Program-made: the position numbers and the translations under genes | Assembly (NCBI GenBank): GCA_024233005.1 | Contig: JACKQE010000003.1 | Span: 219,434 to 283,433 of the forward strand | DNA length: 64,000 nucleotides | Reading direction: 5' to 3' | Origin: Akkermansiaceae bacterium | GTDB taxonomy: Bacteria > Verrucomicrobiota > Verrucomicrobiia > Verrucomicrobiales > DEV007 | Shown here: positions 9,601 to 46,854 of the stretch, piece after piece | Position numbering within the stretch: position 1 is the first letter of the stretch | How the letters are laid out: each line of letters opens with the position of its first letter | Notes under the pieces: generated by a model | Told to the model about the DNA's origin: nothing | The model's database searches: none | The model's input: only the letters and a program-made list of their open reading frames with translations

Positions 9601-9815
9601 AACTCTCCCTCGACACCGGACGACTTCTGGCCGGAAACATCGGACCGGTGTCCGATGACCGGGCTTTTGCCCTGAAAGCCTTCTCACTGGTGCTGTGCCG
9701 CGCCCCCACCGAAGAGGAACTGACGGCCTGCCTCGAATTCCTGAAAGCGGTTCCCAAACGCGACCGGCTGGTCCACGCTTTGCTCAATCACAATGACTTT
9801 GTCATGATCCGATGA
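6654..9815 (+). CDS. PSCyt1/DUF1549/DUF1553 (PSD1) family secreted protein with inserted DUF1080/LamG-like domain and coiled coil
   Basis: Signal-like N-terminus. CYACH at 6819..6833, a second CxxCH in [13 protein letters not shown], a [13 protein letters not shown] (DUF1549) motif and the C-terminal [11 protein letters not shown] (DUF1553 end). Residues encoded by about 8086..8613 look like a DUF1080 jelly-roll (DFDLTLKFR..., [18 protein letters not shown]). Confidence 0.8.
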
Positions 9816-14881: not shown

Positions 14882-15255
14882 GGTGCTCTATTTTGAATCT
14901 CCGACTTCCGAAGTCAAGTCTTCCCCATCTCGATCAACGCGTCCAGCTTGTGGAGCGCTCCCGGCGTCTGAAAGGCGTTGAGGAAGGGCGTGGTGAACCG
15001 GTTGGAATTCGCGCGCCTATTCGTGATGACGCGGACCATCCCCTGCTGGGTCACTGCGCCGACAATTCCCTCTGTGAATCCATTCCCTCGAATAGGACAC
15101 TGGGCAATTTGAGTCCGCACCCTGTGGTGGTTTAGTTGGTGCACTAGGGTTATCCAGCGACTACTGAAGCGTAAGACACCCGCATGCGCCCCCCCTCGGG
15201 GAGGCGCATCTGCGTCTGGAAAAGAGCCCCATTTGAGGCGATGCTGTGGGGCTCG

Positions 15256-17793
15256 ATGAAACGGATCCCCCCTCACCCTTTTGGCAGCATTTTTGTGGTT
15301 CAGGCTCTGGCAGTCCTCGGGGCCGGCACCGGATGGACACAGGAAACCGACTTCAATCGGGACATCCGTCCCATTCTTGCGGAGAACTGCTTTTACTGCC
15401 ACGGGCAGGATGGGAACAAGCGCAAAGCGGAACTCCGCCTCGACGTGCGGGAGGAAGCGATGAAAAAAGGGGCGATCGCCCCGGGAGACCTTGCCGCCAG
15501 CGGTTTGGTGGAAAGGATCCGGTCCGGCGATCCCAAGGAAATGATGCCTCCCCCCGATTCAAACCGCCGCCTCACCGCCGCTCAAAAAGAGCTGCTGACG
15601 CGCTGGATTGGAGCCGGAGCGAAGTACGCGGAGCACTGGGCGTTTGTCGCCCCCGTCCGACCGGTCGAACCCGGCGTGCGCGACCAGGCATGGCCCCGCA
15701 ACGCGATCGACCGCTTTGTCCTCGCCAAACTCGAGGCCGCTGGTATCACTCCCTCACCGGAGGCGGACCGAGCCACCCTGATCAAGCGCCTGTCCATCGA
15801 CCTCATCGGCCTGCCCCCTCAACCCTCAGAAATTGAAGCGTTCCTCAAGGACCAGGATCCCCGGGCCTATGAGAACCTGGTCGATCGCCTCCTCAACAGC
15901 CGCCACTATGGTGAACGCATGGCCCTGCCCTGGTTGGATGCGGCACGCTACGCCGACAGCAACGGCTTCCAGCAGGATGGCGACACCTGGCAGTGGCTCT
16001 GGCGCGACTGGGTCGTCCGGTCCATGAATGCGGACTTGCCGTTCGACCAGTTCACCCTCTGGCAACTCGCGGGCGATCTGTTGCCGGAGGCGACCACGGA
16101 TCAGAAAATCGCCAGCGGCTTCAACCGGAACCATTTGCTCAATGGCGAGGGGGGTGCCATTCCCGAAGAGCAGCGTTTCGTCAACCTTTTCGACCGCATC
16201 GACACCACCGCGACGACCTGGCTGGGGCTGACGATGGCCTGCGCCCAGTGCCATGATCACAAATACGATCCCATCACCCAGCGTGATTATTACAGCCTGC
16301 TTGACGCGTTCAACCGGGTGCCGGAATCCGGGACTCCGCAGCGCCAATCGGCTCGCATCCGGGTGGCCGCGCCTTTCCTGGAGCTGCCCACAGAGGAGAA
16401 TACGGCCCGGATCAGCGAGATGGAATCGAGAATCCGGGACACCGAAGCCAAGGCCAAGCCAGACATCGAAGCCGCCTTTGCCGAATGGCGGACGACAGTC
16501 CACCGCGGCACCAAAGACCTGCCAGAAAACCTGGTCTCGCTGCTGGGCAAAGCCGAGTCCGAACGCGGACCCGCCGGGGAGAAGGCGCTCGAGACCGGTC
16601 TGAGGAAGCATTTTGACGACAAGGTGCGTCCGGAACTGGGAAAGAAGATTCCGGCCGTGCAACAGATTGCGCAGCTGAAGAAAGATCTGGCGGACTACCG
16701 GGGCGACCAGATTCCCCGGCCCATGGTGATGAGCGATGATCGTCCACGGGAAACCAGCATTCTGGACCGCGGACAGTATCTCAGTCCACTGCAGCCGGTT
16801 GCGTTCGCCACCCCGGCCTTTCTGCCTCCGCTTCCCAAGGACGCCCCGCAGAACCGGCTTGGGCTGGCGCGGTGGCTGGTATCCCCCAGCCATCCGTTGA
16901 CCGCCAGAGTTCAGGTCAACCGAATGTGGCAGCACTTCTTCGGCCTCGGCATCGTCAAAACGTCGGAGGATTTCGGCGTGCAGGGCGAGTATCCGGTCCA
17001 CATGGCGCTGCTGGACTGGCTGGCGGTGGAGTTCCGCGAACACGGGTGGAGCCAGAAGCACCTCCACCGACTCATCGTCACCAGCTCCACCTACCGCCAA
17101 TCGAGCCGGGTAACGCCGCAGTTAAGGGAACTCGACCGCGAAAACCGCCTCTATGCCAGAGCGGGCCGTTTCCGAATGCCGTCCCTGATCCTGCGCGATT
17201 GGGCGCTGGGATCTTCCGGACTGCTGGTGCCAGAGATCGGGGGTCCCCCGGTTTACCCCTACCAACCGGATAATGTCTGGGAAGCGCTCGCCATCACCAA
17301 GGAACGCGATTTCACCTACCCGGCATCCACCGGAGCGGATCTCTACCGCCGCAGTCTCTACACCTTCTGGCGACGCACGGTCGGTCCAACCAACATGTTC
17401 GACGCTTCGGACCGCCAATCCTGCCGCGTCCGGCAGGGCAGCACCAGCACTCCCCTGCACGCGTTGACCACCTTGAATGATCCCACCTGGGTCGAAGCGG
17501 CCCGCGTCCTCGCGGAGCGATGCAGCAAAACCTCCGGCTCGACCGACGACCGGCTCGCCGAGGCCTTTGGTCGCGTGCTCTGCCGAAAGCCGGGCCCAAG
17601 CGAGCGGGACCGGTTGCGGCAGGCCCACGCCCGCCAGGCAGCCATTTACCGGAAGGATCCGGAAGCGGCCAAAGCACTGCTGGGAGTGGGGGCGAGCCCC
17701 CGTGACGCTTCCCTGGACCCCATTGAACAAGCCGCTTTCACCGCCGTCTGCCTCGGCATTTTCAATCTCGACGAAGCCCTCACCCGCGAATGA
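15256..17793 (+). CDS. PSCyt1/DUF1549/DUF1553 family secreted protein
   Basis: Start set at ATG 15256 ([24 protein letters not shown], signal-like). CFYCH at 15388..15402, [14 protein letters not shown]1549-like [19 protein letters not shown], and the DUF1553 tail. Confidence 0.8.
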
Positions 17794-19238
17794 ACTTTCC
17801 CGAAATCCTCCGTCACAACGCCGCCCTGGTCACCCGCCGACAACTGTTCGGCCGCACCGCCGGTGGTGTCGGCATGGCCGCATTGGCATCGCTGCTGCAG
17901 CAGGAGGGGGCCGTGGCCGCCCCAACTGGCACCACGGGACCACACCACCGGCCCAAGGCCAAGCGGGTGGTGATGCTCTGGCAGGGAGGAGCCCCCTCGC
18001 ACGTTGATCTCTTCGACTCCAAACCGATGCTGCAGAAAATGGCAGGAAAGGACATTCCGGATTCCGTGCGCGGCACGACCCGTCTGTCCACCATGTCGGC
18101 CAGCTACAAAAAGTGGCCCTGTGTGCCAGCGATCAAACCCTTCAAACCTTACGGGAGCGCCGGCACGATGATGAGCGAAATGCTGCCCAACATTGGAGCG
18201 TTGTCCGATGACCTCTGCCTGGTCCGCAGCATGCACACCGAGGCGGTGAACCATGCTCCCGGGGTGACCTTTTTCATGACCGGCGCCCAGGTTCCCGGGC
18301 GACCGAGCATGGGCGCCTGGCTCTCCTATGGTCTGGGCAGCGAGAGTGACAATCTGCCGGCATTCGTCGTGATGACCTCGAGCGACAAGGGGAGAACCTG
18401 CGGTCAGCTCTTTTTTGACTATTACTGGGGCAGCGGGTTTCTGCCCAGCCGCTACCAGGGCGTCCGCTTCCGCAACACCGGAGAGCCCGTTCCCTACCTG
18501 TCGAATCCTCCCGGGATCAGCCCAGCAGGACGGCGAGCCCTGCTTGATGACATCGCGGCGATGAATGCGGCACACCTGGCCGACTATGGGGATCCTGAAA
18601 TCGACACCCGGATCACCCAGTATGAGATGGCCTTCCGGATGCAGACCAGCGTGCCCGACTTGGTGGATTTTGCCGGGGAATCCCCGAAAACGATCGAGCG
18701 CTATGGACCGGACGCGTTGACCAAAGGAAGTTTCGCCAACAACTGCCTGGTAGCCCGACGGTTGCTGGAACGCGGAGTGCGTTTCGTGCAGTTGATGCAC
18801 TCGGGCTGGGACCAACACAGCAATCTGTTCACTCAGTTGGAAGTGCAATGCCGTGACACCGACGCCCCGGCCGCCGCCCTGGTGCAGGACCTGAAAGAGA
18901 GAGGTCTGCTCGAAGACACCCTGGTCGTCTGGGGTTGCGAATTTGGAAGGACTCCGTTCGGTCAGGGTGACCCGGCGAGTCCCAAAGGGCGTGACCATTT
19001 TGGCCGGGCTTACAGTTGGTGGCTGGCCGGTGGAGGCATCGCTCCCGGCACCGTCCATGGCGCCACTGACGACTTCGGTTGGAACATCACCGAAAACCCG
19101 GTCCATGTCCACGACATGCAGGCAACCATCCTGCATCTCTGCGGCATGGACCACGAACGCCTCACCTTCCGCTATCAAGGACGCCAGTACCGTCTCACCG
19201 ACGTTCATGGGGAGGTCGTGCGCGGCATTCTTTCCTGA
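17790..19238 (+). CDS. DUF1501 domain protein
   Basis: ATGA overlap with the upstream gene. Tat-like TRRQLFGRTAGGVGMAAL, LWQGGAPSHVDLFDSKP, GRDHFGRAYSWWLAGGGIAPG...TDDFG...VHDMQATILHLCGMD. Confidence 0.8.
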   Translation: MNFPEILRHNAALVTRRQLFGRTAGGVGMAALASLLQQEGAVAAPTGTTGPHHRPKAKRVVMLWQGGAPSHVDLFDSKPMLQKMAGKDIPDSVRGTTRLSTMSASYKKWPCVPAIKPFKPYGSAGTMMSEMLPNIGALSDDLCLVRSMHTEAVNHAPGVTFFMTGAQVPGRPSMGAWLSYGLGSESDNLPAFVVMTSSDKGRTCGQLFFDYYWGSGFLPSRYQGVRFRNTGEPVPYLSNPPGISPAGRRALLDDIAAMNAAHLADYGDPEIDTRITQYEMAFRMQTSVPDLVDFAGESPKTIERYGPDALTKGSFANNCLVARRLLERGVRFVQLMHSGWDQHSNLFTQLEVQCRDTDAPAAALVQDLKERGLLEDTLVVWGCEFGRTPFGQGDPASPKGRDHFGRAYSWWLAGGGIAPGTVHGATDDFGWNITENPVHVHDMQATILHLCGMDHERLTFRYQGRQYRLTDVHGEVVRGILS

Positions 19239-19407
19239 GATTGCCGCTTTTTCCGGGAACTTGGGATGTCCTCCGGTCAGCGGAACCTGGCGCCCACAGG
19301 GAGGAATCCGCCCGCCGATTGCGGTCCGGAACTAAACTCCAAGAACTACTTCCCTCGCAGTTACGCCATTGCCAATGGGACCCCCGATCCTATACATTCC
19401 CCGCCTC

Positions 19408-22104
19408 ATGGCATCCCCCTCTCCCTCGAATGGCCTCCGGCGCGTGGTCAGCGCATCGATTCCCACCCTGGCGGCCACGATCCGGTTGGGGGTTCTTCTC
19501 GTGGGGATTCAGGGCCACGCTGCCGCGGGCGGAGCGGAACCCGGTCCACTCCCGGCCTTCCTTCAAACCCACTGCGTGGAATGCCATGACGCCGATAGCC
19601 ACAAGGGCAATCTCGATCTTACCACCCTGCAGCCAAAATTTGACGGCGCGGACGCCTTCGCCCGCTGGGTCAAGATTCATGACCGGATCGTGTCGGGGGA
19701 AATGCCTCCGCGAAAGAAACCCCGCCCCGCCGCCGGAGAACTCGCCGCCGTCACCCAATGGCTCTCCGGATCTCTGAATGAAGCCGAGCAGGCCCATCTT
19801 GATGCCGCCACCCGCACGGGAGTGCGGAGGCTGACCCGGTCGGAATACGAAAACACCGTGCGTGATCTGTTCGACCTGCCGGGAATCGCTCTTCTGAGCG
19901 GACTCCCTGCCGACGGATCGGCGCATGGTTTTGACAAAAACAGCGATGCGCTGGACATCTCGCACGTCAATCTTTCCAAGTATCTGGAGGCGGCCGACAA
20001 GGTTCTCGACATGGCCATTGCGACCCAACCCACCGCGCCGGAGAAAACCACGGTGCGTCTCTCACTGGCAGGCAACTATGAGCCAAACATCATGTTGATG
20101 CAGGGCGATGCGGTGCTGCTCCGCGACAAGCAGCACGATCCCCTCTTCCCTCCGGCCGGCACATACGCCCACATCAACCAGGGAGCCCACGAGCAGCTCG
20201 GCATTTTCAAGCGGATGAGCAGTGTGGGGGTGTTCCGGCATGAGGACGAGTCGTGGAATGCCTACTTTCGGAAGTTCTCCGCCCTTTATCCGGGCCGCTA
20301 CCGTGTCCGCGCCTCTTTCTGGAGCATGACCTGGGACAAAGGCAAAGTCCTTCCCTCGCGGGGCGTCGAGGCGGCCCGGCTCTCTGTGGTGCAATTCAAC
20401 GAAAACGGCCGTGGCGGACAACACCCGAGTTACGTGCTGGGTTATTTCGACGCGCCTTCCATCGAGTCCCGGACGCATGAATTGGATGTCTGGTTCAACC
20501 AGAAAGAAACGATCGGATTCAACACCGCCTCCCTGGCTCCAGTGGTGCTTTACCGCGTGGGAACCTGGGGCCAGGTGGACCGCACGATGGGCTTCACCGG
20601 TCCCTGCATCGTCAATGACTGGCTCGACATCGAAGGCCCGTTTCACGACGTGTGGCCGCCTCGCAGTCACCAGCTGCTCTTCGGCGAACTCCCCCTCATC
20701 GAATTCAAGCCGGCCGACCATCCGGATGTCCGTCCGCCCGTCCGCAAGCCCCTCAAACAGGAGATTGTCGGTTGCGACAACAAGCCCGAACCTGTCCAGG
20801 GAATCTGGACCGTGGGGAGCCACGAGCCGCTGGCTGACGCGGACCGCCTGCTGGCGGCATTCCTGCCCAAAGCCTTCCGCCGTCCGGTGGGAGAGGATGT
20901 GCGCCGGTCCTATGTCGGTCTCGTCTCATCGCGGCTCACCGCGGGGGATGCCTTTGAAACGGCCATGCGCCAGGCCTACCGCGCGGCGCTCTGCTCGCCG
21001 GACTTCCTCTACCACGTCGAACCTCCCGGTCCCTTGGACGAGTTCGCCCTCGCGTCCCGGCTTTCTTATTTCCTGTCCAACTCGAAACCGGATGAGGTCC
21101 TCTCCGGACTGGCGACCGCTGGGAAATTACGGGAGGCGACCGTGCTCCGGGAACAGGTCGGACGACTCTTGGCCGATCCGAAATCCCAGCGGTTTATCGA
21201 GGATTTCCTCGCGCAATGGCTCAAGCTGGGAGCCATCGGCGCGAACGATCCAGACAAGAAACTCTACCCCGAATTCAGCCCCTACCTTCAAGACTCCATG
21301 GTTGCTGAAACCCGCGCCTACTTCCGCGAACTGATCGACCGGGACCTCGACGCGGGCCATCTGGTGAAGTCGGACTTCGCCATGCTCAATGAAAAACTCG
21401 CCACGCACTATGGCATTCCCGGGGTGAGCGGACCGGCCATCCGCCGGGTCGCCCTGCCTCCAGATTCCCCCCGCGGCGGGTTCCTGACCCAGGCCGCGAT
21501 ACTGAAGGTCACCGCCAACGGCACGACCACGTCACCGGTGCCGCGCGGCGCGTTTGTTCTCGCCAGACTGCTGGGACAGCCTCCCGACCCGCCTCCGTCC
21601 AGCGTTCCGGCGGTGGAACCGGATGTCCAGGGGGCCACCACCATCCGCGAACAGCTCGCGAAGCACCGCTCCGACGCGGTGTGTTCCTCCTGCCACGCCA
21701 AAATAGATCCCCCCGGATTTGCCTTGGAAAGCTTCGATGTGATCGGGGGCTGGCGCGACCGCTACCGCTCGATCGGGCAAGGTGATCCGGCGCCACGTGG
21801 CAGCATTGATCCCCGGATCGGCATCGGTTTCAAGCTGGGCCCCCCGGTTGATCCCGGCGGCGCACTTCCCGACGGTCGCCAATTTCATGATGTGATCGAG
21901 TTGAAAGCGTTGCTGGCCGGGGACAAAAGCCAACTCCTCCACAACCTTGCCCGCCAGCTCACCGTCTACGCCACCGGGAGAGACATCGCTTTCCGTGACC
22001 GCAAGGCCCTCGACACCATCGTCGCCAGCACTGAGAAGCAAGGAGGCGGGATCCGCAGCCTGATACAGGAAATCGTCCTCAGCCCCCTGTTCCAAACCCG
22101 ATGA
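19408..22104 (+). CDS. DUF1587/DUF1592/DUF1595/DUF1588/DUF1585 (PSCyt3 + PSD2-5) family secreted protein, copy 1
   Basis: Start at ATG 19408 (signal-like). CVECH at 19573..19587, a second CxxCH (CSSCHAKIDPPGFALESFD) at 21682..21696, and the C-terminal IQEIVLSPLFQTR. Strongly similar to the 24270..26903 product. Confidence 0.8.
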   Translation: MASPSPSNGLRRVVSASIPTLAATIRLGVLLVGIQGHAAAGGAEPGPLPAFLQTHCVECHDADSHKGNLDLTTLQPKFDGADAFARWVKIHDRIVSGEMPPRKKPRPAAGELAAVTQWLSGSLNEAEQAHLDAATRTGVRRLTRSEYENTVRDLFDLPGIALLSGLPADGSAHGFDKNSDALDISHVNLSKYLEAADKVLDMAIATQPTAPEKTTVRLSLAGNYEPNIMLMQGDAVLLRDKQHDPLFPPAGTYAHINQGAHEQLGIFKRMSSVGVFRHEDESWNAYFRKFSALYPGRYRVRASFWSMTWDKGKVLPSRGVEAARLSVVQFNENGRGGQHPSYVLGYFDAPSIESRTHELDVWFNQKETIGFNTASLAPVVLYRVGTWGQVDRTMGFTGPCIVNDWLDIEGPFHDVWPPRSHQLLFGELPLIEFKPADHPDVRPPVRKPLKQEIVGCDNKPEPVQGIWTVGSHEPLADADRLLAAFLPKAFRRPVGEDVRRSYVGLVSSRLTAGDAFETAMRQAYRAALCSPDFLYHVEPPGPLDEFALASRLSYFLSNSKPDEVLSGLATAGKLREATVLREQVGRLLADPKSQRFIEDFLAQWLKLGAIGANDPDKKLYPEFSPYLQDSMVAETRAYFRELIDRDLDAGHLVKSDFAMLNEKLATHYGIPGVSGPAIRRVALPPDSPRGGFLTQAAILKVTANGTTTSPVPRGAFVLARLLGQPPDPPPSSVPAVEPDVQGATTIREQLAKHRSDAVCSSCHAKIDPPGFALESFDVIGGWRDRYRSIGQGDPAPRGSIDPRIGIGFKLGPPVDPGGALPDGRQFHDVIELKALLAGDKSQLLHNLARQLTVYATGRDIAFRDRKALDTIVASTEKQGGGIRSLIQEIVLSPLFQTR

Positions 22105-22664
22105 GAACCACGATCGCCCTCTGCCTGTGCTGGGTGCTCTGCGCCGCCCTCCCAGCCCCCGAACTCCTGGCCGGGGAGCAGACCGCCACATTCCGCCTCA
22201 TCGGCCTGAGCCACCCCGAGCGGGAAGAGGATTTCCACCAGGTGATGCAGTCGCTGCCGGACCTGAAACTCGAGCGATGGGATGCCGCGAAGGCTGAAGT
22301 CACCCTGCGCTATGACACTGCCAGGCTGTTCCCCACCTCCAAGCCGGATCAGGTCTTCCCGCCGGAGAAAATTCTTGAACACCTCGACAAGCTCATCGGC
22401 CAGGCATCCAACCGCACCTTCAGCCTGACCGCCCCCCTTTCGGTGCAGGACAGCGAATTGACCAAGGTGGAGATCCCCTGCGGGTTCCTCGACTGCAAAG
22501 GCTGCCGCTATGCGGTCTACTTGGCGGTGGCGAAAACCGAGGGCGTCGCCCGGGCCTCCGTCAGCTCTGAAACAGGAGTTCTCACGGCTTGGATCGAGAC
22601 CGGCAAAACCAACCGTGAAACCCTGATCGAAGCCCTCAAAAAAGCCCGGGTGGAACTCCCCTGA
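22101..22664 (+). CDS. Secreted tandem HMA-like (ferredoxin-fold) protein, second domain with CxxC, copy 1
   Basis: ATGA overlap with the upstream gene and a signal peptide (MRTTIALCLCWVLCAALPA). The C-terminal half, KVEIPCGFLDCKGCRYAVYLAVAKTEGVARASVSSETGVLTAWIE...TLIEALKKARVEL, follows the heavy-metal-associated domain pattern (G.xCxxC...GV....V.......v). CKGC is at 22494..22505. The N-terminal half has the same spacing but no Cys pair. Confidence 0.6.
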   Translation: MRTTIALCLCWVLCAALPAPELLAGEQTATFRLIGLSHPEREEDFHQVMQSLPDLKLERWDAAKAEVTLRYDTARLFPTSKPDQVFPPEKILEHLDKLIGQASNRTFSLTAPLSVQDSELTKVEIPCGFLDCKGCRYAVYLAVAKTEGVARASVSSETGVLTAWIETGKTNRETLIEALKKARVELP

Positions 22665-22815
22665 AAACCCTCGCACCATCATCCCCCTCCCTCCGGGCTG
22701 GAAAGATGGTGTTCCTTCCGTTGGATTCCGGCTCAGCCAGGAGCGTATCCGCCCTCGCAGGCCTCGCAGTTGCGCCATTGCAAAAGTCGGCCGCAAGCCT
22801 GTAGATTCTCCCCAC

Positions 22816-24273
22816 ATGAAAGCCCCTCTCTGCTCACGCGCCGCCGCTTGGTCCCGGCGTGAATTTCTGAATCGCACCGGCATGGGGTTGGGGACATTCG
22901 GCCTGGCCTCGGTCCTGCAGCAGGCCGGTCTCGGAGCCGCCGAATCCTTCGTCTCCCCCTTGTCCAGCCGGTCGCCGCACTTTGCGCCCAAAGCGAAGCG
23001 GATCATCCAAATTTTCTGCGAAGGAGGCCCGTCCCAGGTGGACACCTTCGATCCGAAGCCGATGCTTTCCAAATACCATGGCAAACCGGTTGATGAGGTG
23101 ATGAAGGACTTCACCAAGACCGCCGGTGAAGTTGCCTCCGGGATGGGACGGCTCAGCGGCAAACTGCAGCAATCCGGATTCACGTTTTCCAAACACGGCC
23201 AATGCGGCGCCGAGATCAGCGAGCTGTTCCCCAAACTGGCCGGTCACGCCGACGATCTCTGCATTGTCCGGTCCATGCACACCAAAAGCAGCGTCCACGA
23301 ACCAGCCCAGCTCATGACCAACACGGGAGAACTGACCGTGGTCCGGCCCAGTGTCGGCTCCTGGATCGTCTATGGTCTCGGCACGGAAAACCAGAATCTG
23401 CCGGCGTTCGTCGCCCTTCACCCCAACGGAACGACCTCATCCGGAGACAAGAACTGGTCGAATGCCTTCCTTCCATCCTGGACACGAGGCACGGGGATCG
23501 CGACGAAGAATCCCTCGGTCGAGAAACTCATCGAAAACCTTCGCAGCGGCAGCACCAGCATCCGTGAACAGCGACGCCAACTCGACCTCTTGGCGGAAAT
23601 GAATGCCGATTTCTTGGAGGATCACCCGGGAGACGCCTATCTTGAGGGCCGCGTCCTCTCGTTCGAGACCGCCTTCCGGATGCAGGTCGAGGCGACCGAT
23701 GCTTTCGACTTGCAACGGGAACCGCTCCCGGTCCGGGAGCTATACGGCGACACCGAACAGGGACGGCAAATGCTGCTGGCCCGGCGGCTGGTGGAACGCG
23801 GCGTGCGTTTTGTCCAGGTCTGGCACACCGGCTGGGACACCCACGACGAGAACGACAGCCGTCATAAAACCCTCTGCGAGGCAGCCGATCAACCGGTCGC
23901 GGCCTTGCTCCAGGACCTCAAAAACCGCGACATGCTCAAGGACACCCTTGTGATCTGGGGCGGTGAGTTCGGCCGCACGCCCACCAGTGACAACAATGAC
24001 GTGGCCAAGAAGAAAGGCATCGGTCGTGATCACAACGCCGGTGGCTATTCTTTGTGGATGTCGGGCGGCGGCATCAAGGGTGGTCTGACTCATGGGTCCA
24101 CGGACGACTTTGGTGCCGTGGCTCAGGAAAACCCCGTCGATGTTCATGACTTCCACGCTACCGTGATGAATCTCATGGGTTTCGATCACGAGCGGCTCAC
24201 CTACCGTTACGCGGGTCGTGATTTCCGGCTGACAGACGTCTATGGCAAGGTCGTGAAGGATCTTCTGGCATGA
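22816..24273 (+). CDS. DUF1501 domain protein
   Basis: Tat-like SRREFLNRTGMGLGTFGLASVL, FCEGGPSQVDTFDPKP, GRDHNAGGYSLWMSGGGIKGG..STDDFG...VHDFHATVMNLMGFD. Its stop overlaps the next start (ATGA at 24270). Confidence 0.8.
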   Translation: MKAPLCSRAAAWSRREFLNRTGMGLGTFGLASVLQQAGLGAAESFVSPLSSRSPHFAPKAKRIIQIFCEGGPSQVDTFDPKPMLSKYHGKPVDEVMKDFTKTAGEVASGMGRLSGKLQQSGFTFSKHGQCGAEISELFPKLAGHADDLCIVRSMHTKSSVHEPAQLMTNTGELTVVRPSVGSWIVYGLGTENQNLPAFVALHPNGTTSSGDKNWSNAFLPSWTRGTGIATKNPSVEKLIENLRSGSTSIREQRRQLDLLAEMNADFLEDHPGDAYLEGRVLSFETAFRMQVEATDAFDLQREPLPVRELYGDTEQGRQMLLARRLVERGVRFVQVWHTGWDTHDENDSRHKTLCEAADQPVAALLQDLKNRDMLKDTLVIWGGEFGRTPTSDNNDVAKKKGIGRDHNAGGYSLWMSGGGIKGGLTHGSTDDFGAVAQENPVDVHDFHATVMNLMGFDHERLTYRYAGRDFRLTDVYGKVVKDLLA

Positions 24274-26903
24274 AGCCCACCGCCCGCTGGACGCAAATGT
24301 TGGCGTGCCTCCCGATGGTGGTGTTCCACGCCGCGCCGGCCACTGCCGAGCCCGGACCACTGCCGGCATTTCTGGAGACCCATTGTCTGGAATGCCATGA
24401 CTCCGATAGTCGCAAAGGAAATCTCGATCTCACGGCACTGCGGTCCGATTTCGCCAACGCGGAAACCTTTGCCCGATGGGTCAAGATCCATGACCGGATC
24501 ACTTCAGGAGAAATGCCTCCGAAAAAAAAGGCCCGCCCCGAGGTCGGAGAAAGCGCCGCGTTCATCGAGTGGCTCTCGGGATCGCTCATCAAGGCCGAAA
24601 AGGCTCGCGTCGCTGGCGCAGGCCGGACGGGGGTGCGCCGGCTAACCCGGACGGAATACGAGAACACCCTGCGCGATCTCTTCGACATGCCCGGTCTCGC
24701 CCTGCAAAACCTGCTTCCGGCGGACGGTTCGGCACACGGCTTTGACAAGAACAGTGACGCGCTGGACATCTCCCACGTCCATCTCGCGAAATACCTTGAG
24801 GCCGCCGATCTCACGCTCGATCTCGCCATCGCCACCCAACCGAAGGCTCCCACGGTGCAAAAGCGCCGCATCTCCCTGATGAACCGGGGAGGCTTTGTCG
24901 CCCACATTGTCATGAACGGCGATGGGGTCCTCCTGCGGGACATGAAGCCCGACCCCGACTTTCCCGCCTCTGGCGAGCACAAGCACATCGACCAGGGAGC
25001 GCATGAGCAGATCGGTTCCTTTGAAACCGGGAGCACCGTGGGCCTGTTCCGCCATGAGGACGAGTCGGTCAGCCCCTATTTCATGGAGCACGTCACCATT
25101 TACCCCGGCCACTACCGGGTCCGCACCTCGCTCTGGGCCTTCCAGTGGGACAAAGGTCAAGTCCTTCCCGCGCGCGGCACCGAGGCCGCACGGCTCTCGG
25201 TCGTGCAGCTCACCGGCGACGGCCGGGGCGGCCAACATCCCAGTTATGTCCTCGGTTACTATGATGCGCCTTCGCTCAGTCCCACCGAGCACGAGGTGAA
25301 GGTGTGGTTGAACCACAACGAGCTCATCGGATTCAACGCCGCCTCGCTCGCGCCCGTGGCAAATTACAACCGCAAGGGACGCGCCATGGCCTTCACCGGG
25401 CCCGGCATTGCCGTGGATTGGCTGGAAATCGAGGGACCACTGCATGAAGAATGGCCCCCCCGTTCACATCGGCTGCTGTTTGGAGAACTGCCCCTGAAAG
25501 AGTTCCCATCCGGAGAGCAGGAAGGGCAGCGCCCCCCCGTGAGGAAGAAGGTCAGGCAGCTGGGCGCCGGCCTGAACCGCCCCGATCCCGGAGCCGGGCT
25601 TTGGAGCGTGCAGAGTGCCCAACCCCTGGTCGACGCCGAGCGCTTGCTCGCCGGGTTCCTTCCCAAAGCCTTCCGGCGTCCCGTGTCCCCGGAAGTGCGC
25701 CAGTCGTATCTGGAGATCGTCAAGCAACGCCTGAAAGCTGGCGACTGCATTGAAACCGCTCTCCGCGAGGCCTACCGGGCGGCTCTCTGCTCCCCGGACT
25801 TTTTGTACCAGGTCGAGCCCGCGGACGGACTCGACGACTACGCCCTGGCCGCCCGCCTCTCCTATTTTCTGTGGAATTCGGCGCCCGATGATGAACTTCT
25901 CGCCCTCGCTGCACGAAACACCCTGCACGATCCCGGAACTCTTCGTTCCCAGACCGAGCGTTTGCTGGGAGATGTGAAATCGCAACGGTTCATCGATGAC
26001 TTTCTCGGCCAGTGGCTCAAGCTCCGTCAGATTGCGGCAAACGATCCCGACAAGAAGCTCTACCCAGAATTCAGTCCCTATTTGCAGGATAGCATGGTCG
26101 CCGAAACCCGCGCCTATTTCCGCGAACTCATTGAGAAAGACCTCGACGCCACCCACCTCGTCAGATCCAGATTCGCCATGCTGAATCAAAAGCTCGCCAC
26201 CCATTATGGCATCGACGGCGTGATCGGCCCCAAGATCCGCCGCGTCGATTTGCCGCCGGGATGCCCCCGCGGAGGATTCCTCACCCAGGCCTCGATCCTG
26301 AAAGTCACTGCCAACGGCACCACCACCTCGCCCGTGGTGCGCGGAGCCTTCGTCCTGGACCGCATCCTTGGAAAGCCACCCGAGCCTCCTCCCTCGAGTG
26401 TCCCCGCCGTCGAGCCGGACGTGCGCGGCACCACCACCATCCGCGAGCAGCTCGACAAACATCGCAATGACGCCGCCTGCGCCACCTGCCATGCAAAGAT
26501 CGATCCTCCCGGTTTCGCCCTCGAAAGCTTCGATGTCATCGGAGGTCAGCGCTCGCGTTACCGCAGCATCGGGGAAGGCTTGGGCGATCCCGCCCCCCGG
26601 GGGACCATCGACCCTTTCATTGGCATCAGCTTCAAACTCGGCCCGCCGGTCGACTCCGCCGGGGTCATGCCTGGGGGGAGATCGTTCAGCGATATCCGTG
26701 ACATGCAGGACATCCTCGCGGAACACCCGGAAGTTCTGCTTCACACCCTCGCCCGTCAGTTCCTGATTTACAGCACCGGTCGTGACATCGCGTTTTCGGA
26801 CCGAGCCGCCCTCAACGACCTCCTCACCAGAACCGGTCCGAAAGGCGGCGTGCGGTCGCTTCTGCACCAGCTCATCCAAAGTCCACTGTTCCAAACTCGA
26901 TGA
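24270..26903 (+). CDS. DUF1587/DUF1592/DUF1595/DUF1588/DUF1585 family secreted protein, copy 2
   Basis: CLECH at 24384..24398, CATCHAKIDPPGFALESFD at 26478..26492, and the C-terminal HQLIQSPLFQTR. Long identical runs shared with copy 1 include EPGPLPAFL.THC.ECHD, FARWVKIHDRI.SGEMPP and LPADGSAHGFDKNSDALDISHV. Confidence 0.8.
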   Translation: MKPTARWTQMLACLPMVVFHAAPATAEPGPLPAFLETHCLECHDSDSRKGNLDLTALRSDFANAETFARWVKIHDRITSGEMPPKKKARPEVGESAAFIEWLSGSLIKAEKARVAGAGRTGVRRLTRTEYENTLRDLFDMPGLALQNLLPADGSAHGFDKNSDALDISHVHLAKYLEAADLTLDLAIATQPKAPTVQKRRISLMNRGGFVAHIVMNGDGVLLRDMKPDPDFPASGEHKHIDQGAHEQIGSFETGSTVGLFRHEDESVSPYFMEHVTIYPGHYRVRTSLWAFQWDKGQVLPARGTEAARLSVVQLTGDGRGGQHPSYVLGYYDAPSLSPTEHEVKVWLNHNELIGFNAASLAPVANYNRKGRAMAFTGPGIAVDWLEIEGPLHEEWPPRSHRLLFGELPLKEFPSGEQEGQRPPVRKKVRQLGAGLNRPDPGAGLWSVQSAQPLVDAERLLAGFLPKAFRRPVSPEVRQSYLEIVKQRLKAGDCIETALREAYRAALCSPDFLYQVEPADGLDDYALAARLSYFLWNSAPDDELLALAARNTLHDPGTLRSQTERLLGDVKSQRFIDDFLGQWLKLRQIAANDPDKKLYPEFSPYLQDSMVAETRAYFRELIEKDLDATHLVRSRFAMLNQKLATHYGIDGVIGPKIRRVDLPPGCPRGGFLTQASILKVTANGTTTSPVVRGAFVLDRILGKPPEPPPSSVPAVEPDVRGTTTIREQLDKHRNDAACATCHAKIDPPGFALESFDVIGGQRSRYRSIGEGLGDPAPRGTIDPFIGISFKLGPPVDSAGVMPGGRSFSDIRDMQDILAEHPEVLLHTLARQFLIYSTGRDIAFSDRAALNDLLTRTGPKGGVRSLLHQLIQSPLFQTR

Positions 26904-27487
26904 CCGTTTTCCAACTGCCACAGATCCATCATCCGGCCTGCCTTGGAATGCTCGCGTTCCTTGGCGTGGTTCTGTTCGTGCCCGCAGGGCCGGAACTGGC
27001 CGCGGCCGAGTCCATCGTGCAGTACCGCGTCAACGGGTTGTTCCAGCCTGACCGCCAAGAAGCGCTCACCACCGCCGCACAAGCCCTTGAGGGGTGCCAC
27101 CTCACCGGGGTGGATTACGACACCGCCCTCGCATCCTTCGCCTACGACCCCGACCACCAACTCTTCAAGAATGCCAAGCCCGAACAGGTGCTCCAGCGGA
27201 TCAATGATCAGATCAGAAGGTTGACCAACGGCTGCTTCACGCTTTCCCTGCCCGGCAAACTCCCACCGGAAAAACTTGTCGAGATTCGGTTCGAGATCGA
27301 AGGTCTCGATTGCCTCGGTTGCTCGTTTGGGGCCTATCGTGCGGTCGCCGGCATTGATGGAGTGGAGCGCGCCACCGCCAGTTTCCATGAAGGCCGGCTC
27401 ACCGCCTGGATCGATCCCGCCAAAACGAACCGTGAAGCGCTGGCCGCCGCCCTGACTAAAAAAGAGATCACGATCCTCCACCCCTGA
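26900..27487 (+). CDS. Secreted tandem HMA-like protein with CxxC, copy 2
   Basis: ATGA overlap with the upstream gene and a hydrophobic N-terminus. EIRFEIEGLDCLGCSFGAYRAVAGIDGVERATASFHEGRLTAWIDPAKTNREALAAAL, with CLGC at 27311..27322. Shares LDC.GC, LTAWI and KTNRE.L with copy 1. An alternative start is at 26948. Confidence 0.6.
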   Translation: MTVFQLPQIHHPACLGMLAFLGVVLFVPAGPELAAAESIVQYRVNGLFQPDRQEALTTAAQALEGCHLTGVDYDTALASFAYDPDHQLFKNAKPEQVLQRINDQIRRLTNGCFTLSLPGKLPPEKLVEIRFEIEGLDCLGCSFGAYRAVAGIDGVERATASFHEGRLTAWIDPAKTNREALAAALTKKEITILHP

Positions 27488-27492
27488 CTGCC

Positions 27493-28752
27493 ATGACCAA
27501 GAACATTGTCCCCCGCCCGGCCTCGCTCCCCCGCCGCACTTTCCTGCGGGGAGCGGGGATCACCCTGAGCCTGCCGTTTCTGGAGGCCATGTGCCCGGCG
27601 TTTTCTTCCGCCGCCGAGTCCTCCATCCCACGCCGCATGGTCTGCATCCAGACCAACATGGGAATCCTGCCGCAGTTTTTCTTTCCGGAGAACGCGGGAC
27701 GCGACTACACTGCGAGCGTCTACTTGGAGCGACTCAAGACCCACCGCGACCAGATCACGGTCTTCTCGGGCGTCAGCCATCCCGTTGTCGATGGCGGACA
27801 CGCGGCGCAGAAATGCTTTCTGACAGGCACGCCGCACCCGGCCCGGGGCGGCTTTCGCAACGGCATTTCCCTGGACCAGTTCGCCGCGGAAGAAATCGGC
27901 AACCAAACCCGCTATCCGTCTCTCGTGCTCGCGGTCACGAATGAAAATGCCACGATGAGTTTCACCCGCAGCGGGGCTTCGATCCCTTCGGAACAGAGCC
28001 CGAAAAAATTGTTTGAACGTCTTTTCATCCAGGGCAACGCCAAGGAAGTTGAGGCGAATGTGGAAGCTCTGCAGCGGGGCCGCAGCTTGATGGACTTCGT
28101 GGGGGAACAGTCGAAGCGCCTCAGCCGGACCCTCTCCAAGAGTGACCAGTCCCGACTCGACCAGTACTTCACCGCGGTGCGGGATCTCGAACAGCGACTT
28201 CACAGCGCGGAGGAGTGGGAATACAAGCCCAAGCCCGCCGTCACGGCCAAAGCCCCCGAGGAAATCACCGACGCGCTGGAGTTCGTGCGCCGCACCGGTC
28301 AAACCTTCGATGTGATGAAACTTGCTCTTGAGACCGACTCCACACGGGTGATTTCCCTCTTCATTGACACCACCGTCATCCACAATATCACCCACCATGG
28401 CAACCGCCCCGAGGTTCTCGCCGAACTGCGCGGGCACGAGGAACGCCAGTTTGATGCCCTGAACGGTTTCCTGACGGCTCTGGCGGAGGCAAAAGAGCAG
28501 GGCGACACGTTGCTTGATCGCACCCAGGTCTACTACGGCACCTGCATGGGAAGCGCCAACTCCCACAGCAATGTGAACCTGCCGGCACTGCTGGCGGGTG
28601 GCGGATTCAAACACGGCCAACATCTCGCCTTCGACAAGGACCACAACCACCCTCTGACGAACCTTTACGTCTCCATGCTGCAACGGCTGGGCATCGATAC
28701 CGGGGAGTTTTCCACCGGCAAGACGACCATCAAGGGACTGGAGATGGCCTGA
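27493..28752 (+). CDS. DUF1552 domain protein (Tat signal)
   Basis: The N-terminal PRRTFLRGAGITLSLPFLEAM is the hallmark DUF1552 start. About 420 aa. Located 5 nt after the HMA-like gene. Confidence 0.75.
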   Translation: MTKNIVPRPASLPRRTFLRGAGITLSLPFLEAMCPAFSSAAESSIPRRMVCIQTNMGILPQFFFPENAGRDYTASVYLERLKTHRDQITVFSGVSHPVVDGGHAAQKCFLTGTPHPARGGFRNGISLDQFAAEEIGNQTRYPSLVLAVTNENATMSFTRSGASIPSEQSPKKLFERLFIQGNAKEVEANVEALQRGRSLMDFVGEQSKRLSRTLSKSDQSRLDQYFTAVRDLEQRLHSAEEWEYKPKPAVTAKAPEEITDALEFVRRTGQTFDVMKLALETDSTRVISLFIDTTVIHNITHHGNRPEVLAELRGHEERQFDALNGFLTALAEAKEQGDTLLDRTQVYYGTCMGSANSHSNVNLPALLAGGGFKHGQHLAFDKDHNHPLTNLYVSMLQRLGIDTGEFSTGKTTIKGLEMA

Positions 28753-28780: not shown

Positions 28781-31700
28781 TTGCACCATCCAACCATGAA
28801 ATTGATCCTCTCCGCAATGCCGCAAGCATTGTTCTACCCAGTCGTGTTCCTGCTTCCGACTGCCGCGGTGAAATCCGACGAGGGAAGCGCTTTCTTCGAA
28901 TCGAAAATCCGTCCGATTCTCATTGAAAGCTGCTACGACTGCCACAGTGCCGAGGGGAAGCACAAGGGGGGATTGTCTCTCGACACGAAGGAAGGCGTGC
29001 TCAAAGGTGGTGAGACCGGCGCGGCGGTGGTGCCCGGCGACACGGCGAAAAGTTTGCTGCTGACGGCGGTGCGCCATACCGATCCCGACCTTGCGATGCC
29101 GCCGAAGAAAAAACTCAGCGATGCCCAGATCGCCGATCTGGAACGCTGGGTGGTCATGGGAGCCCCTGACCCCCGCTCCGGCGCCAAGCCAGCGACGAAA
29201 CTGGAGGAACATTTCGCCACCGCCAAAACGCACTGGTCCTTCCAGAAAGTCATCCAACCGGCAGTGCCCGCCGTGCCCGGAGCCACGCACCCGATCGATG
29301 CCTTCATCCGTGAAAAACTCGCGTCCGCCAAGCTCTCGCCTTCTCCGAAAGCGGATGCCCGCACCCTGATCCGTCGCGTCTCTTTCGATCTCACCGGGTT
29401 GCCGCCGTCACCGGAGGAAGTGGAGTCCTTTGCCAAAGCGCACGCCCAAAACCCCGACAGGGCCTTCCAGGATCTTGTCGAAACGCTTCTCGCCTCTCCG
29501 CATTATGGGGAACGCTGGGGACGCCACTGGCTCGACGTGGCCCGGTATGCCGACAACATGGGCTCGATCTACAACGGGGACGACAGCTACCCGTATGCCT
29601 TCACCTACCGGGATTATGTGGTCCGCTCCTTCAACGAGGACAAACCCTACGATCTTTTCCTGCGCGAACAACTCGCCGCCGATCTGCTCCCCGGTGCCGA
29701 TCCCCGGGACAACTCACGGCTTGCCGCCCTGGGCTTTCTGAATCTGGGAAGACGCTATGACCGCAAGGTGGACGACAACAACATTGACGACCGCATCGAC
29801 CTCATTTCCCGGGGCCTGCTCGGTCTGACCGCAGGTTGCGCCCGCTGCCACGACCACAAGCTGGAGCCCATTCCCACGAAGGACTATTACGCGCTTTACG
29901 GCATCTTCAAAAGCTGTGCCGAGCCGGCCATCTATCCGGTGCTGCTCCCCCAGCCCGTCAGCCCCGAAAGCGCGGCTTACGATGCTGAAAACCGGAAGGC
30001 GCGCACGGCCTACAGCACCGCGAGCATCGCGGCCGCCAACGCTGCCTCCGCGCAGGCACGAAGCCGGGTGGGCGACTATCTCATGACGGCGGAGCAGTCC
30101 GGTTGGAAAACCCACTATGATAACAAGGGCATCATGGATGTGATCACCCAGCGAAAGCTTCAGGGTGACCTGCACAACGCGATGACCCGCGCCCGAAAAT
30201 CCTGGATCGAAGCGCATCCCGAAGTGTTCGGTCCCTTTCTGGAGTTCATCACCGGCAATCCGTTGGAACCCAAGCCGGTCCTCCACCCTCTGGTGGCCAA
30301 AGCTTTCGCCACGCCCGCAACCACCCTGGAGGAGTTTGCGGCGCGCTACAACGGGCTCTTTGCGGATATCGACGGAGACTGGCGAAAACTCGCCGAAGGC
30401 CCCCTGCAGCAAGCGGCCAAGTTGCAGGAAGCGGACCTCGATCCTCCGGTGGACAAGCTCGCCACCCAGTCCATCGCCCGAATGGACGCAGTGGAGAACA
30501 CCCTGCCGTTGCCCGATGCGGACCGCGAGGCTCTGCGTCAAATTCTCATCGCCAAAGACTCGCCGGTGAAGATCGCCCCGGAACGGTACTCCGTGGCGCG
30601 GCTGTTTCCGGAACCGGAAAAGAAGGAAATGGACAAGCTCGCCAAACCGGTCACGGAGTTGACGAAACATCCCGGCGCGCCGGTGAGGGTCATGGCGCTG
30701 GAGGATACCAAACCGTATGATGCCAGGATTTTTCTGCGGGGAGATCCCAAAACACCGGGAGATCCCGCTCCGCGCGCCTTTTTCACCCTCCTGACACCGG
30801 AAGGAGCCGAGCCTTTCCCAAAGGACCGCAGCGGTCGGTTGGAACTCGCCAACGCCCTGGTGGACCCGATGAATCCTCTCACCGCCCGGGTCATCGTGAA
30901 CCGCGTCTGGCAGTGGCACTTCGGCGAGGGGTTGGTCCGGAGCACCAGTGACTTCGGTCTTCGGGGGACGCCTCCGACCCACCCCGCGCTTCTCGACTGG
31001 CTTGCCTCCCGGTTCGTGGAGAGCGGTTGGAGTTTTAAAACGCTCCACCGGCTCATGCTTTCCAGTGAGACCTGGCAACAGGACAGCCGTCCCCGCGCAG
31101 ACCTTGCCAAAACGGATCCCGACAATGCCCTCTGGGGACGCTCTCTGGCGAGGCCCCTTGAGTTCGAGCCCTTCCGGGACGCCCTGCTCAGTGTGGCCGG
31201 GGTGCTCGAAGAACACCTCGAGGGCAAGCCGACCGATTTGCTCAAGGAAGCATCATTACGGCGAACGATTTATGCAACGGTGGACCGAAAAACCCTGCCG
31301 GGACTTTTCCGCAGTTTCGATTTCCCCGATCCCAACTTCACCGCCGCCGGCCGCGGACGCACCGCCCTGACCCCGCAGGCCCTCTACCTGCTGAACAGCG
31401 CCACGGTGGTCGACCGGGCGCGTGACCTGGCCCGGCAGGTGCGCCCCGATTCTCCGTCTGGAAATGCCGGAGGCATCCGCGAGCTTTACCGCAAAGTCTT
31501 CCAGAGGCTTCCCGGAGAGAAAGAACTGGCCCGGGCGGAAGCTTTTGTGTCCCAGCATCCCGAGCATGACGTCGTCATGCCCGAAGTAACCGACTGGACC
31601 TACGGGTTTGGTGAATTCGACGCCACAACCCATACCATCGCCCATTTCACCCCGTTGCAGTTCGCCGGGGATGTCGTCAAAGGAGGCAAGGTCGGCGACC

Positions 31701-32185
31701 AGGACACCACCGGTTTGGAGTTCAATGCCCAGGGAGGTCAGCCCGCAGCGGGGATGGCCGCGGCGGTGCGTCGCTGGACCGCTCCCCGGGACGGCACGCT
31801 CACCATCTATGCAGAACTGCTCCACCAGAGCAAGGAAGGGGACGGCGTCGTTTGCCGGATTCTCTCCAGCCGGGACGGACTGCTTGGAGAGTGGACCGCC
31901 ATCAATCAATCCATCCTGACTACCCTGGATGATGTGAAGGTGAAGAAAGGGGACACGCTGGATTTTGCCGCCCTCTGCCGGAACGATCCCAAATCCGACA
32001 CCTACCAATGGGCGCCGACCATCACCATGACCACGGCGGAAATGCCCGGGATGAGCGGCATGGCGATGCGGTGGGATGCCCGCTCGAATTTCCTCAATCC
32101 GGCCAAAATGCCCGAGCCCTTGGGTGCCTGGGAAGAGTTGGCGCAGGTGCTGCTGCTTTCCAACGAATTCATCTTCGTGGAGTGA
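28781..32185 (+). CDS. PSCyt1/DUF1549/DUF1553 family secreted protein with about 190-aa C-terminal insertion
   Basis: CYDCH at 28931..28945, [29 protein letters not shown], and the terminal VLLLSNEFIFVE. An alternative start is ATG 28796 (MKLILSA...). An unassigned region encoded by about 31563..32140 precedes the terminal helix. Confidence 0.8.
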   Translation: MHHPTMKLILSAMPQALFYPVVFLLPTAAVKSDEGSAFFESKIRPILIESCYDCHSAEGKHKGGLSLDTKEGVLKGGETGAAVVPGDTAKSLLLTAVRHTDPDLAMPPKKKLSDAQIADLERWVVMGAPDPRSGAKPATKLEEHFATAKTHWSFQKVIQPAVPAVPGATHPIDAFIREKLASAKLSPSPKADARTLIRRVSFDLTGLPPSPEEVESFAKAHAQNPDRAFQDLVETLLASPHYGERWGRHWLDVARYADNMGSIYNGDDSYPYAFTYRDYVVRSFNEDKPYDLFLREQLAADLLPGADPRDNSRLAALGFLNLGRRYDRKVDDNNIDDRIDLISRGLLGLTAGCARCHDHKLEPIPTKDYYALYGIFKSCAEPAIYPVLLPQPVSPESAAYDAENRKARTAYSTASIAAANAASAQARSRVGDYLMTAEQSGWKTHYDNKGIMDVITQRKLQGDLHNAMTRARKSWIEAHPEVFGPFLEFITGNPLEPKPVLHPLVAKAFATPATTLEEFAARYNGLFADIDGDWRKLAEGPLQQAAKLQEADLDPPVDKLATQSIARMDAVENTLPLPDADREALRQILIAKDSPVKIAPERYSVARLFPEPEKKEMDKLAKPVTELTKHPGAPVRVMALEDTKPYDARIFLRGDPKTPGDPAPRAFFTLLTPEGAEPFPKDRSGRLELANALVDPMNPLTARVIVNRVWQWHFGEGLVRSTSDFGLRGTPPTHPALLDWLASRFVESGWSFKTLHRLMLSSETWQQDSRPRADLAKTDPDNALWGRSLARPLEFEPFRDALLSVAGVLEEHLEGKPTDLLKEASLRRTIYATVDRKTLPGLFRSFDFPDPNFTAAGRGRTALTPQALYLLNSATVVDRARDLARQVRPDSPSGNAGGIRELYRKVFQRLPGEKELARAEAFVSQHPEHDVVMPEVTDWTYGFGEFDATTHTIAHFTPLQFAGDVVKGGKVGDQDTTGLEFNAQGGQPAAGMAAAVRRWTAPRDGTLTIYAELLHQSKEGDGVVCRILSSRDGLLGEWTAINQSILTTLDDVKVKKGDTLDFAALCRNDPKSDTYQWAPTITMTTAEMPGMSGMAMRWDARSNFLNPAKMPEPLGAWEELAQVLLLSNEFIFVE

Positions 32186-46837: not shown

Positions 46838-46854
46838 GCTTCCTTGTTCATCTT

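Follow-up and report, generated by a model that had tools for sequence, protein, structure and literature searches.

The best single-domain match to the protein described here is MerP, a Sec-exported periplasmic protein of the heavy-metal-associated (HMA) type that carries a Cys-x-x-Cys (CxxC) motif in the loop that joins strand 1 to helix 1 and hands its metal to a dedicated partner. The protein in question, HMA2, is encoded in a 64,000-nucleotide stretch of an Akkermansiaceae bacterium genome (assembly GCA_024233005.1, contig JACKQE010000003.1, forward-strand positions 219,434 to 283,433), called the window below; feature coordinates are collected in Table 1. HMA2 shares the predicted export route and the position of the motif with MerP, and transfer of metal to a dedicated partner is proposed for it as well. 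The match between MerP and the C-terminal domain (C-domain) of HMA2 concerns both profile (E 3.8e-11) and fold (TM-score 0.84, root-mean-square deviation (RMSD) 1.7 Å). MerP, however, has one domain and a GMTCxxC motif and belongs to a mer operon with MerT and MerA, whereas HMA2 has two domains, an LDCxxC motif and a DUF1592 protein as partner. Copy a of HMA2 scores 22.1 bits with the MerP model TIGR02052, whose cut-off is 92.55 bits, and mer genes were found neither in the window nor at the sampled loci. HMA2 probably (probability about 0.6) serves a DUF1592–DUF1552 gene module in the periplasm as its dedicated metal-binding subunit or metallochaperone, with a predicted Asp-Cys-Cys site in the C-domain and an N-terminal domain (N-domain) that would be a ligand-less adaptor.

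Other described HMA proteins share separate features with HMA2. CopZ-type chaperones are cytoplasmic single domains encoded beside CopA, whereas HMA2 has a signal peptide, two domains and no nearby P-type ATPase; the models NF033795 and NF047957 give 15–22 bits against cut-offs of 85–91 bits. The UxxU/CxxC (seleno)protein model NF041115 yields 19.2 bits for copy a and 49.4 bits (E 3.7e-13) for the second copy in the window, copy b, with a cut-off of 95 bits. The HMA domains of the P1B-ATPases ZntA (GMDCAAC) and ZiaA (GMDCTSC), which act on Zn/Cd/Pb, resemble HMA2 in having Asp directly before the first Cys; they are cytoplasmic parts of a membrane pump, whereas HMA2 is predicted to be secreted, either free or fused to a soluble cytochrome. 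In ZntA, this Asp reportedly ligates Zn together with the two Cys. The tandem HMA domains of Cu-ATPases (ATP7B domains 3–4 and 5–6, Bacillus subtilis CopA domains 1–2) are the best whole-chain fold match of HMA2; in these, both domains have CxxC and bind Cu(I), whereas the first domain of HMA2 has lost both Cys, the second being replaced by Arg.

The partner genes in the window are, by Pfam, members of the PSCyt3/DUF1592–DUF1552 pairs of Planctomycetes and Verrucomicrobia. According to PMC5615132, PSCyt3 genes pair with one family of unknown genes whose function is not known; we infer that this family is DUF1552. The searched literature on DUF1552, DUF1592, PSCyt and HXXSHH contains only statements that the function is not known. 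HMA2 as a third conserved member of the module was found neither in the DUF/PSCyt literature searched nor in the passages of PMC5615132 consulted; searching this literature likewise revealed no mention of a two-domain architecture in which one HMA domain is retired, of the invariant DCxxC or of the module fusions. The HMA domain call itself is not new, as annotation pipelines label members of the family ‘heavy-metal-associated domain-containing protein’ or ‘copper chaperone CopZ’. It is the link of HMA2 to the DUF1592–DUF1552 module that appears to be undescribed. This link gives a sharply defined subfamily of the function-less PSCyt/PSD families a concrete and cheap experimental entry point, and a conserved HMA2 partner points to a system that handles a metal ion. 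The architecture, a secreted HMA pair with one domain retired from metal binding, is rarely described.

The 187-codon open reading frame (ORF) of copy a and its signal peptide, both reported in the initial annotation of the window, were found as described. The N-terminus, MRTTIALCLCWVLCAALPAPELLA followed by GEQ, opens with basic residues, followed by a hydrophobic core and a cleavage site after Ala, and the same Sec-signal layout is common to more than 60 HMA2 homologues, where it ends in LHA or LRA before EE. A homologue search with copy a returned 172 proteins at E ≤ 1e-3, which indicates that the ORF is a real gene. An ORF on the opposite strand (21966–23234, minus strand) was rejected as a composition artefact of GC-rich sequence because the plus-strand gene has these homologues. 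The start codon of copy a shares the ATGA at 22101–22104 with the TGA of the upstream DUF1592-type gene. The product of that gene holds two CxxCH motifs, CVECH and CSSCH, so the translational coupling to a di-haem-motif protein that had been noted earlier also stands.

The AlphaFold2 (AF2) model of copy a, computed with a 35-sequence alignment, has a mean pLDDT (predicted local distance difference test score) of 89.9 and a pTM (predicted TM-score) of 0.79 and comprises two beta-alpha-beta-beta-alpha-beta units. DSSP assigns strands 26–34, 55–61, 66–72 and 108–110 and helices 41–50 and 88–102 to the N-domain, and strands 120–126, 149–154 and 160–166 and helices 133–144 and 172–181 to the C-domain. 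The top Foldseek matches in the PDB are tandem HMA pairs aligned over 159–169 columns, namely ATP7B 5–6 (WLN5-6), ATP7B 3–4 and B. subtilis CopA 1–2. Superposition of single HMA proteins and the C-domain gives 1.5–1.7 Å; the TM-score with CopZ is 0.86, and matches to MerP and CopZ span 0.84–0.87. The family profile of the C-domain matches 44 HMA proteins in the PDB, including, besides MerP, ZiaA (8.4e-10), CopZ (1.3e-8) and ZntA (1.5e-8). Pfam HMA (PF00403) aligns with residues 130–182 of copy a (E 0.0024, 18.6 bits) and matches all 35 aligned homologues, with a best E-value of 1e-10. The predicted structure therefore agrees with the ferredoxin-like HMA fold that had been read from the sequence, and the assignment of the C-terminal half to HMA is upheld by both the MerP-like fold and the profile.

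The initial annotation had also described the N-terminal half as a degenerate HMA domain. A comparison of the N-domain and C-domain profiles with hhalign gave P 0.034 over 28 columns, which is no proof of an internal duplication. The N-domain profile matches a P-type ATPase with five HMA repeats (P0263) at a library-wide E of 9.5e-8 among 1.84 billion representatives, and the local alignment places G35-L36-S37-H38-P39-E40-R41 in register over G-M-x-C-x-x-C. There is no CxxC in this domain: the site reads G-L-S-(H/A)-x-E-R, the first Cys being replaced by His or Ala and the second by an invariant Arg (R41). R32, G35 and R41 are invariant in the homologue alignment. Because the match to HMA repeats is in register, the N-domain is, on profile and model evidence, an HMA derivative without metal ligands, in line with the earlier description.

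The CxxC motif of the C-domain lies where it was first placed (C132 at 22494–22496, C135 at 22503–22505). In the AF2 model, C132 directly precedes helix 133–144 and C135 lies in its first turn. The site had been called canonical; this term does not apply, as the motif is G/x-L-D-C-x-x-C, in which an invariant Leu replaces Met and an invariant Asp replaces Thr, rather than G-M-T/H-C-x-x-C. The best PDB sequence match of copy a is the N-terminal domain of ZiaA, with MDCTSC aligned to LDCKGC. Genome loci supplied 70 non-identical members, of which all 70 have D131 and C135 and 69 have C132, although the motif was one of the two patterns used to retrieve these loci and the counts are thus partly biased by ascertainment. 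One homologue (L055:5989-6522) has PDWKGC, in which Trp stands for the first Cys; this may reflect decay of the copy or an error in sequencing.

This bias is corrected by a profile search with the N-domain only, which is independent of the motif. Among the 1.84 billion representatives, it found 194 at E ≤ 1e-3 and 106 at E ≤ 1e-10; by this count the HMA2 family is small. Motif classes were counted in the 97 representatives that reach at least 45 residues beyond the N-domain. DCxxC is present in 84 of them, and a Cys pair is kept in six more, with HCxxC in two and GCxCxxC in five (one protein has both). The remaining seven lack CxxC; five of these look frameshifted and two look chimeric. The Cys pair, whose conservation in orthologues had been proposed as a check, is thus retained even in a search seeded with the Cys-less domain. 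In the HCxxC proteins, His replaces Asp, and in the GCxCxxC proteins, an extra Cys stands two residues before the first Cys, giving three Cys, usually without the Asp (the six variant representatives are P0137, P0169, P0206, P0220, P0255 and P0228). Fifteen of the DCxxC representatives form a DCxxCC subclade, e.g. P0124, P0135 and P0138. The GCxCxxC, HCxxC and DCxxCC variants may reflect different coordination or a different metal.

The invariant D-C-x-x-C sits exactly in the metal loop of the HMA fold, which bears on the possibility that the two domains have no ligand at all and form a structural or regulatory pair, either an ACT- or RAM-type module or a docking subunit, with the Cys pair as a disulfide staple. 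Foldseek does list tandem ACT domains of aspartokinases (E 1e-3 to 1e-2), the N-domain is clearly devoid of metal ligands, and the C-terminal leucine-rich-repeat domain of one homologue, P0240, suggests protein–protein roles. The ACT matches, however, have TM-scores of 0.13–0.32 and an RMSD of about 13 Å, compared with 1.5–1.7 Å for single HMA domains, and the sequence profiles match HMA rather than ACT, so that such a pair is unlikely.

The residues around the Cys pair also distinguish metal binding from thiol chemistry. The pattern at Asp131 reads as the signature of a third metal ligand and not of a redox-tuned dithiol, because His or an extra flanking Cys is present where the Asp is lost. 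Of the two functions suggested in the initial annotation, metal binding and a thiol redox relay, this pattern favours the first. In a relay, the CxxC would cycle between dithiol and disulfide and either keep the CxxCH motifs of the apocytochrome reduced or pass reducing equivalents within the module. The two CxxCH motifs of the DUF1592 partner, the translational coupling of the two genes, the oxidising nature of the periplasm and the presence of the oxidised MerP structure 1osd among the fold matches are all in keeping with this idea. Asp, its His or Cys substitutes and the Cys that many members add after the second Cys fit ligands rather than redox tuning, which disfavours a relay; moreover, the residues between the two Cys, which set the redox potential of thioredoxin-like proteins, vary freely (KG, KA, QA, RG, LG, EA). 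DUF1592 relatives without an HMA2 gene carry the same CxxCH motifs, and no HMA-fold protein is known to serve as a dedicated oxidoreductase. A relay is therefore regarded as quite unlikely. As for the metal that HMA2 would bind, a divalent thiophilic (Zn-like) ion is somewhat more likely than Cu(I), judging from the Asp shared with ZntA and ZiaA.

The genomic setting of HMA2 was analysed in 62 loci from reference genomes that contain 66 HMA2 genes. A DUF1592 gene lies directly upstream on the same strand in 58 of the 61 cases with enough upstream sequence, and the remaining three HMA2 genes still adjoin DUF1552 or DUF1592. DUF1552 directly follows HMA2 or directly precedes DUF1592 in 31/41 fully covered cases. 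The 57 DUF1592–HMA2 junctions include 22 overlaps of 4 nt, 15 overlaps of 1 nt and 12 gaps of 5–10 nt. Three DUF1592 homologues picked by DUF1592 similarity alone, one of them labelled Planctomycetota, all sit in DUF1552–DUF1592–HMA modules with otherwise unrelated flanks. Across Verrucomicrobiota and Planctomycetota, identity is 61–77% for DUF1592 and 61–75% for DUF1552; HMA2 proteins are 31–66% identical outside near-identical relatives. DUF1592–DUF1552 pairs without HMA2 occur on the same contigs (L013, L019, L028, L057), and as their proteins are only 25–50% identical to those of the window, the HMA2 gene marks a specific, highly conserved DUF1592/DUF1552 subfamily. HMA2 had been described as wedged into a DUF1592 operon; it is rather a conserved, translationally coupled and sometimes fused part of a DUF1592–HMA–DUF1552 module. 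The notion of a generic heavy-metal resistance protein of the MerP or CopZ kind that is a chance neighbour of the cytochrome gene, which draws on the CopZ name given by some pipelines and on weak NCBIfam matches to MerP, CopZ and MerTP, is very improbable, as all these scores are far under the cut-offs, neither the window nor the sampled loci show a mer, cop or P-type ATPase gene next to HMA2, and the near-absolute DUF1592 linkage together with the fusions contradicts it.

A cultured strain, Singulisphaera sp. PoT (L064), carries the module as well. Several sampled loci deviate in gene content. In L008 (8001-9874), HMA2 is followed by DUF1552, and the 8 kb upstream contain no DUF1592 but a sulfatase gene on the opposite strand. 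In one lineage (L004 and L005), a 221-aa gene without a Pfam match (about 7288-7953 in L004) lies between DUF1592 and HMA2, and a PDDEXK_3 gene separates DUF1552 from DUF1592. In L006, HMA2 and DUF1552 have a KilA-N gene between them. Several contigs with this module, which is of the Verrucomicrobia type (e.g. L013, L014, L019, L020 and L057), are on record as ‘uncultured Klebsiella sp.’, ‘Klebsiella pneumoniae’, ‘Akkermansia muciniphila’, ‘Proteobacteria bacterium’ or ‘Abditibacteriaceae’ metagenome-assembled genomes; contigs with these labels are likely to be mislabelled or misbinned.

In at least four protein clusters, the HMA unit is fused to the DUF1592 protein, and a linker of 60–90 residues takes the place of the HMA2 signal peptide. 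The complete example, P0236 (1100 aa; L071:4195-7497), has the whole DUF1592 architecture, then the linker, and both HMA domains at its C-terminal end, and its contig has the order DUF1552, then fusion gene; P0230, P0251 and P0159 represent three more clusters, with fragments of the same fusion. Gene fusion and translational coupling are strong arguments that HMA2 and the DUF1592 cytochrome share a compartment, where the former acts on the latter or alongside it. The layout of the fusions is shared by MerA, in which the HMA unit NmerA, tethered by a linker or free, feeds a metal ion to a redox enzyme. The analogy is functional only: MerA is a cytoplasmic flavoenzyme with an N-terminal HMA domain, whereas the partner here is a predicted periplasmic c-type cytochrome with a C-terminal HMA unit. 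In the homologue P0240 (563 aa), a signal peptide and both HMA domains precede the leucine-rich-repeat region.

In the preferred reading of HMA2 as a metal-binding subunit or metallochaperone, Sec would carry the protein to the periplasm, where it would assist the PSCyt3-type DUF1592 cytochrome with its two CxxCH motifs as a dedicated accessory subunit; in most cases DUF1552, exported by Tat, would take part as well. The CxxCH motifs of DUF1592 would receive haem only outside the cytoplasm, during cytochrome c maturation. The C-domain is predicted to bind one thiophilic metal ion via Asp131, Cys132 and Cys135, in a site that would be closer to the Zn/Cd/Pb type (DCxxC) found in ZntA and ZiaA than to MTCxxC, the Cu(I) type. 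The N-domain would most likely be an HMA-derived adaptor that rests against the C-domain, docks to the cytochrome, or does both. The bound ion would then be handed to, or shared with, DUF1592, either as a cofactor for insertion or as a substrate for processing. The further proposal that the HMA unit delivers metal as a substrate to the c-type cytochrome, the module being a periplasmic metal-ion oxidoreductase or metal-processing machine, is suggested by analogy and is doubtful; if true, it would be the first time that a function is assigned in the ‘Planctomycete-specific’ PSCyt/PSD families, which are very large. A related and equally doubtful idea is that the N-domain, with its invariant Arg41 at the position of the second Cys, might mimic an HMA–HMA transfer complex and so gate the Asp-Cys-Cys site up to the docking of the cytochrome.

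Several points weigh against the reading of HMA2 as a metal-binding partner, in addition to the biased locus counts given above. Copy a alone remains below the Pfam HMA gathering threshold of 24.8 bits. The Zn-like assignment depends on one residue and on the chemistry of ZntA and ZiaA. A CxxC in the periplasm could oxidise to a disulfide. The Tat export of DUF1552 removes the most obvious client for the ion, and the only lead to an acceptor is a set of five His residues in DUF1592 that was defined against a small and related outgroup.

These last two points concern the partner proteins. DUF1552 has invariant His and Asp residues (H103, D128, H297, H301/H302, H358, H374 and H377). A profile–profile comparison of the DUF1552 and DUF1501 proteins of the window links them as distant homologues along their entire length, with an hhalign probability of 96.9% (E 1.4e-10, 361 columns), whereas BLASTP between the two gave nothing significant; both have twin-arginine signals, and they probably share one fold. 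Searches of the PDB with DUF1552, both as a single sequence and as a profile, gave no meaningful match, and the DUF1501 profile matched only sulfatases, weakly (E 0.03–0.5); an alkaline-phosphatase/sulfatase-like metalloenzyme fold is plausible for both families. Since it is Tat-exported, DUF1552 probably acquires any cofactor in the cytoplasm, before export, which makes DUF1592, a Sec-exported protein, the more likely client of HMA2. The AF2 model of DUF1592, built from a homologue alignment, has a pLDDT of 74 and a disordered PSCyt3 haem region; with this model, Foldseek matched only a jelly-roll like those of carbohydrate-binding modules (CBM) in the PDB and gave no functional clue for the helical body. 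H199, H268, H274, H370 and H434 of DUF1592 are invariant in 47/47 HMA-linked proteins, and in an outgroup of seven unlinked, mutually related DUF1592 sequences they are identical in 3/24 alignment cells, compared with about 50% for other invariant positions of the region. The five His offer a weak lead to a candidate metal acceptor site. They lie in or near the predicted CBM-like jelly-roll domain. A scan of NCBIfam found no names for the partner proteins.

The window holds a second, paralogous HMA2 gene. The initial annotation reported a single HMA gene; copy a was correctly identified, while copy b was missed. The two copies are 36% identical (BLASTP E 1e-31), and copy b matches Pfam HMA with E 5.6e-4. 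Its subtype (b-like) differs from that of copy a and is shared with Planctomycetota. Copy a is followed by DUF1501 and not by a DUF1552 of its own; the DUF1552 gene of the window follows copy b. A sequence scan found no promoter or terminator in the spacer after copy a. The DUF1592 protein encoded upstream of copy a comprises PSCyt1, PSD3 (DUF1587), a jelly-roll middle part, PSD5 (DUF1595), PSD4 (DUF1592), PSCyt3 (DUF1588) and PSD2 (DUF1585).

Table 1. Coordinates of HMA2, its predicted parts and other features of the window
Feature	Position	Strand	Description
HMA2 copy a	22101..22664	+	187-aa two-domain HMA protein, ATG start, DCxxC-R-Y subtype
HMA2 copy a signal peptide	22101..22172	+	Sec-type, residues 1–24, predicted cut between LLA and GEQ; low pLDDT
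N-terminal degenerate HMA domain	22176..22430	+	Residues 26–110; G35-L36-S37-H38-P39-E40-R41 at GMxCxxC position
C-terminal HMA domain	22458..22661	+	Residues 120–187; Pfam HMA, family profile, Foldseek
Predicted metal site, Asp131-Cys132-Lys-Gly-Cys135	22491..22505	+	Strand 1–helix 1 loop and first turn of helix 1
DUF1592-type cytochrome copy a	19369..22104	+	Likely true start ATG 19408; Pfam, AF2, gene calls in L002
DUF1501 protein	22816..24273	+	Tat signal SRREFL; 151-nt spacer after copy a; 4-nt overlap with next gene
DUF1592-type cytochrome copy b	24270..26903	+	Pfam; 66% identical to copy a
HMA2 copy b	26900..27487	+	195 aa, GLDCLGCSF subtype, ATGA overlap with DUF1592 copy b
DUF1552 (HXXSHH) protein	27493..28752	+	Tat signal PRRTFLRG; Pfam
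PSCyt2/PSD1 cytochrome and DUF1501 pair	15184–17793 and 17790–19238	+	Pfam; flanks cluster
PSCyt1/PSCyt2/PSD1 protein	28781..32185	+	Pfam; closes cluster
TPR protein	43898–47041	-	1047 aa
DinG-like helicase	50931–52967	-	DEAD and Helicase_C_2
LptF/LptG permease	53138–54838	+	
S41 peptidase	58150–59766	-	With PDZ
Sulfatase	59796–61292	-	

No Rfam families were found in the whole window. The HMA2 genes are part of a run of ‘Planctomycete-specific’ genes on the plus strand (6654–32185), which is broken at about 11.2–15.2 kb by other families on both strands. This run holds three PSCyt2/PSD1 proteins (6654–9815, 15184–17793 and 28781–32185) and three DUF1501 proteins (9812–11242, 17790–19238 and 22816–24273), as well as two DUF1592, two HMA2 and one DUF1552.

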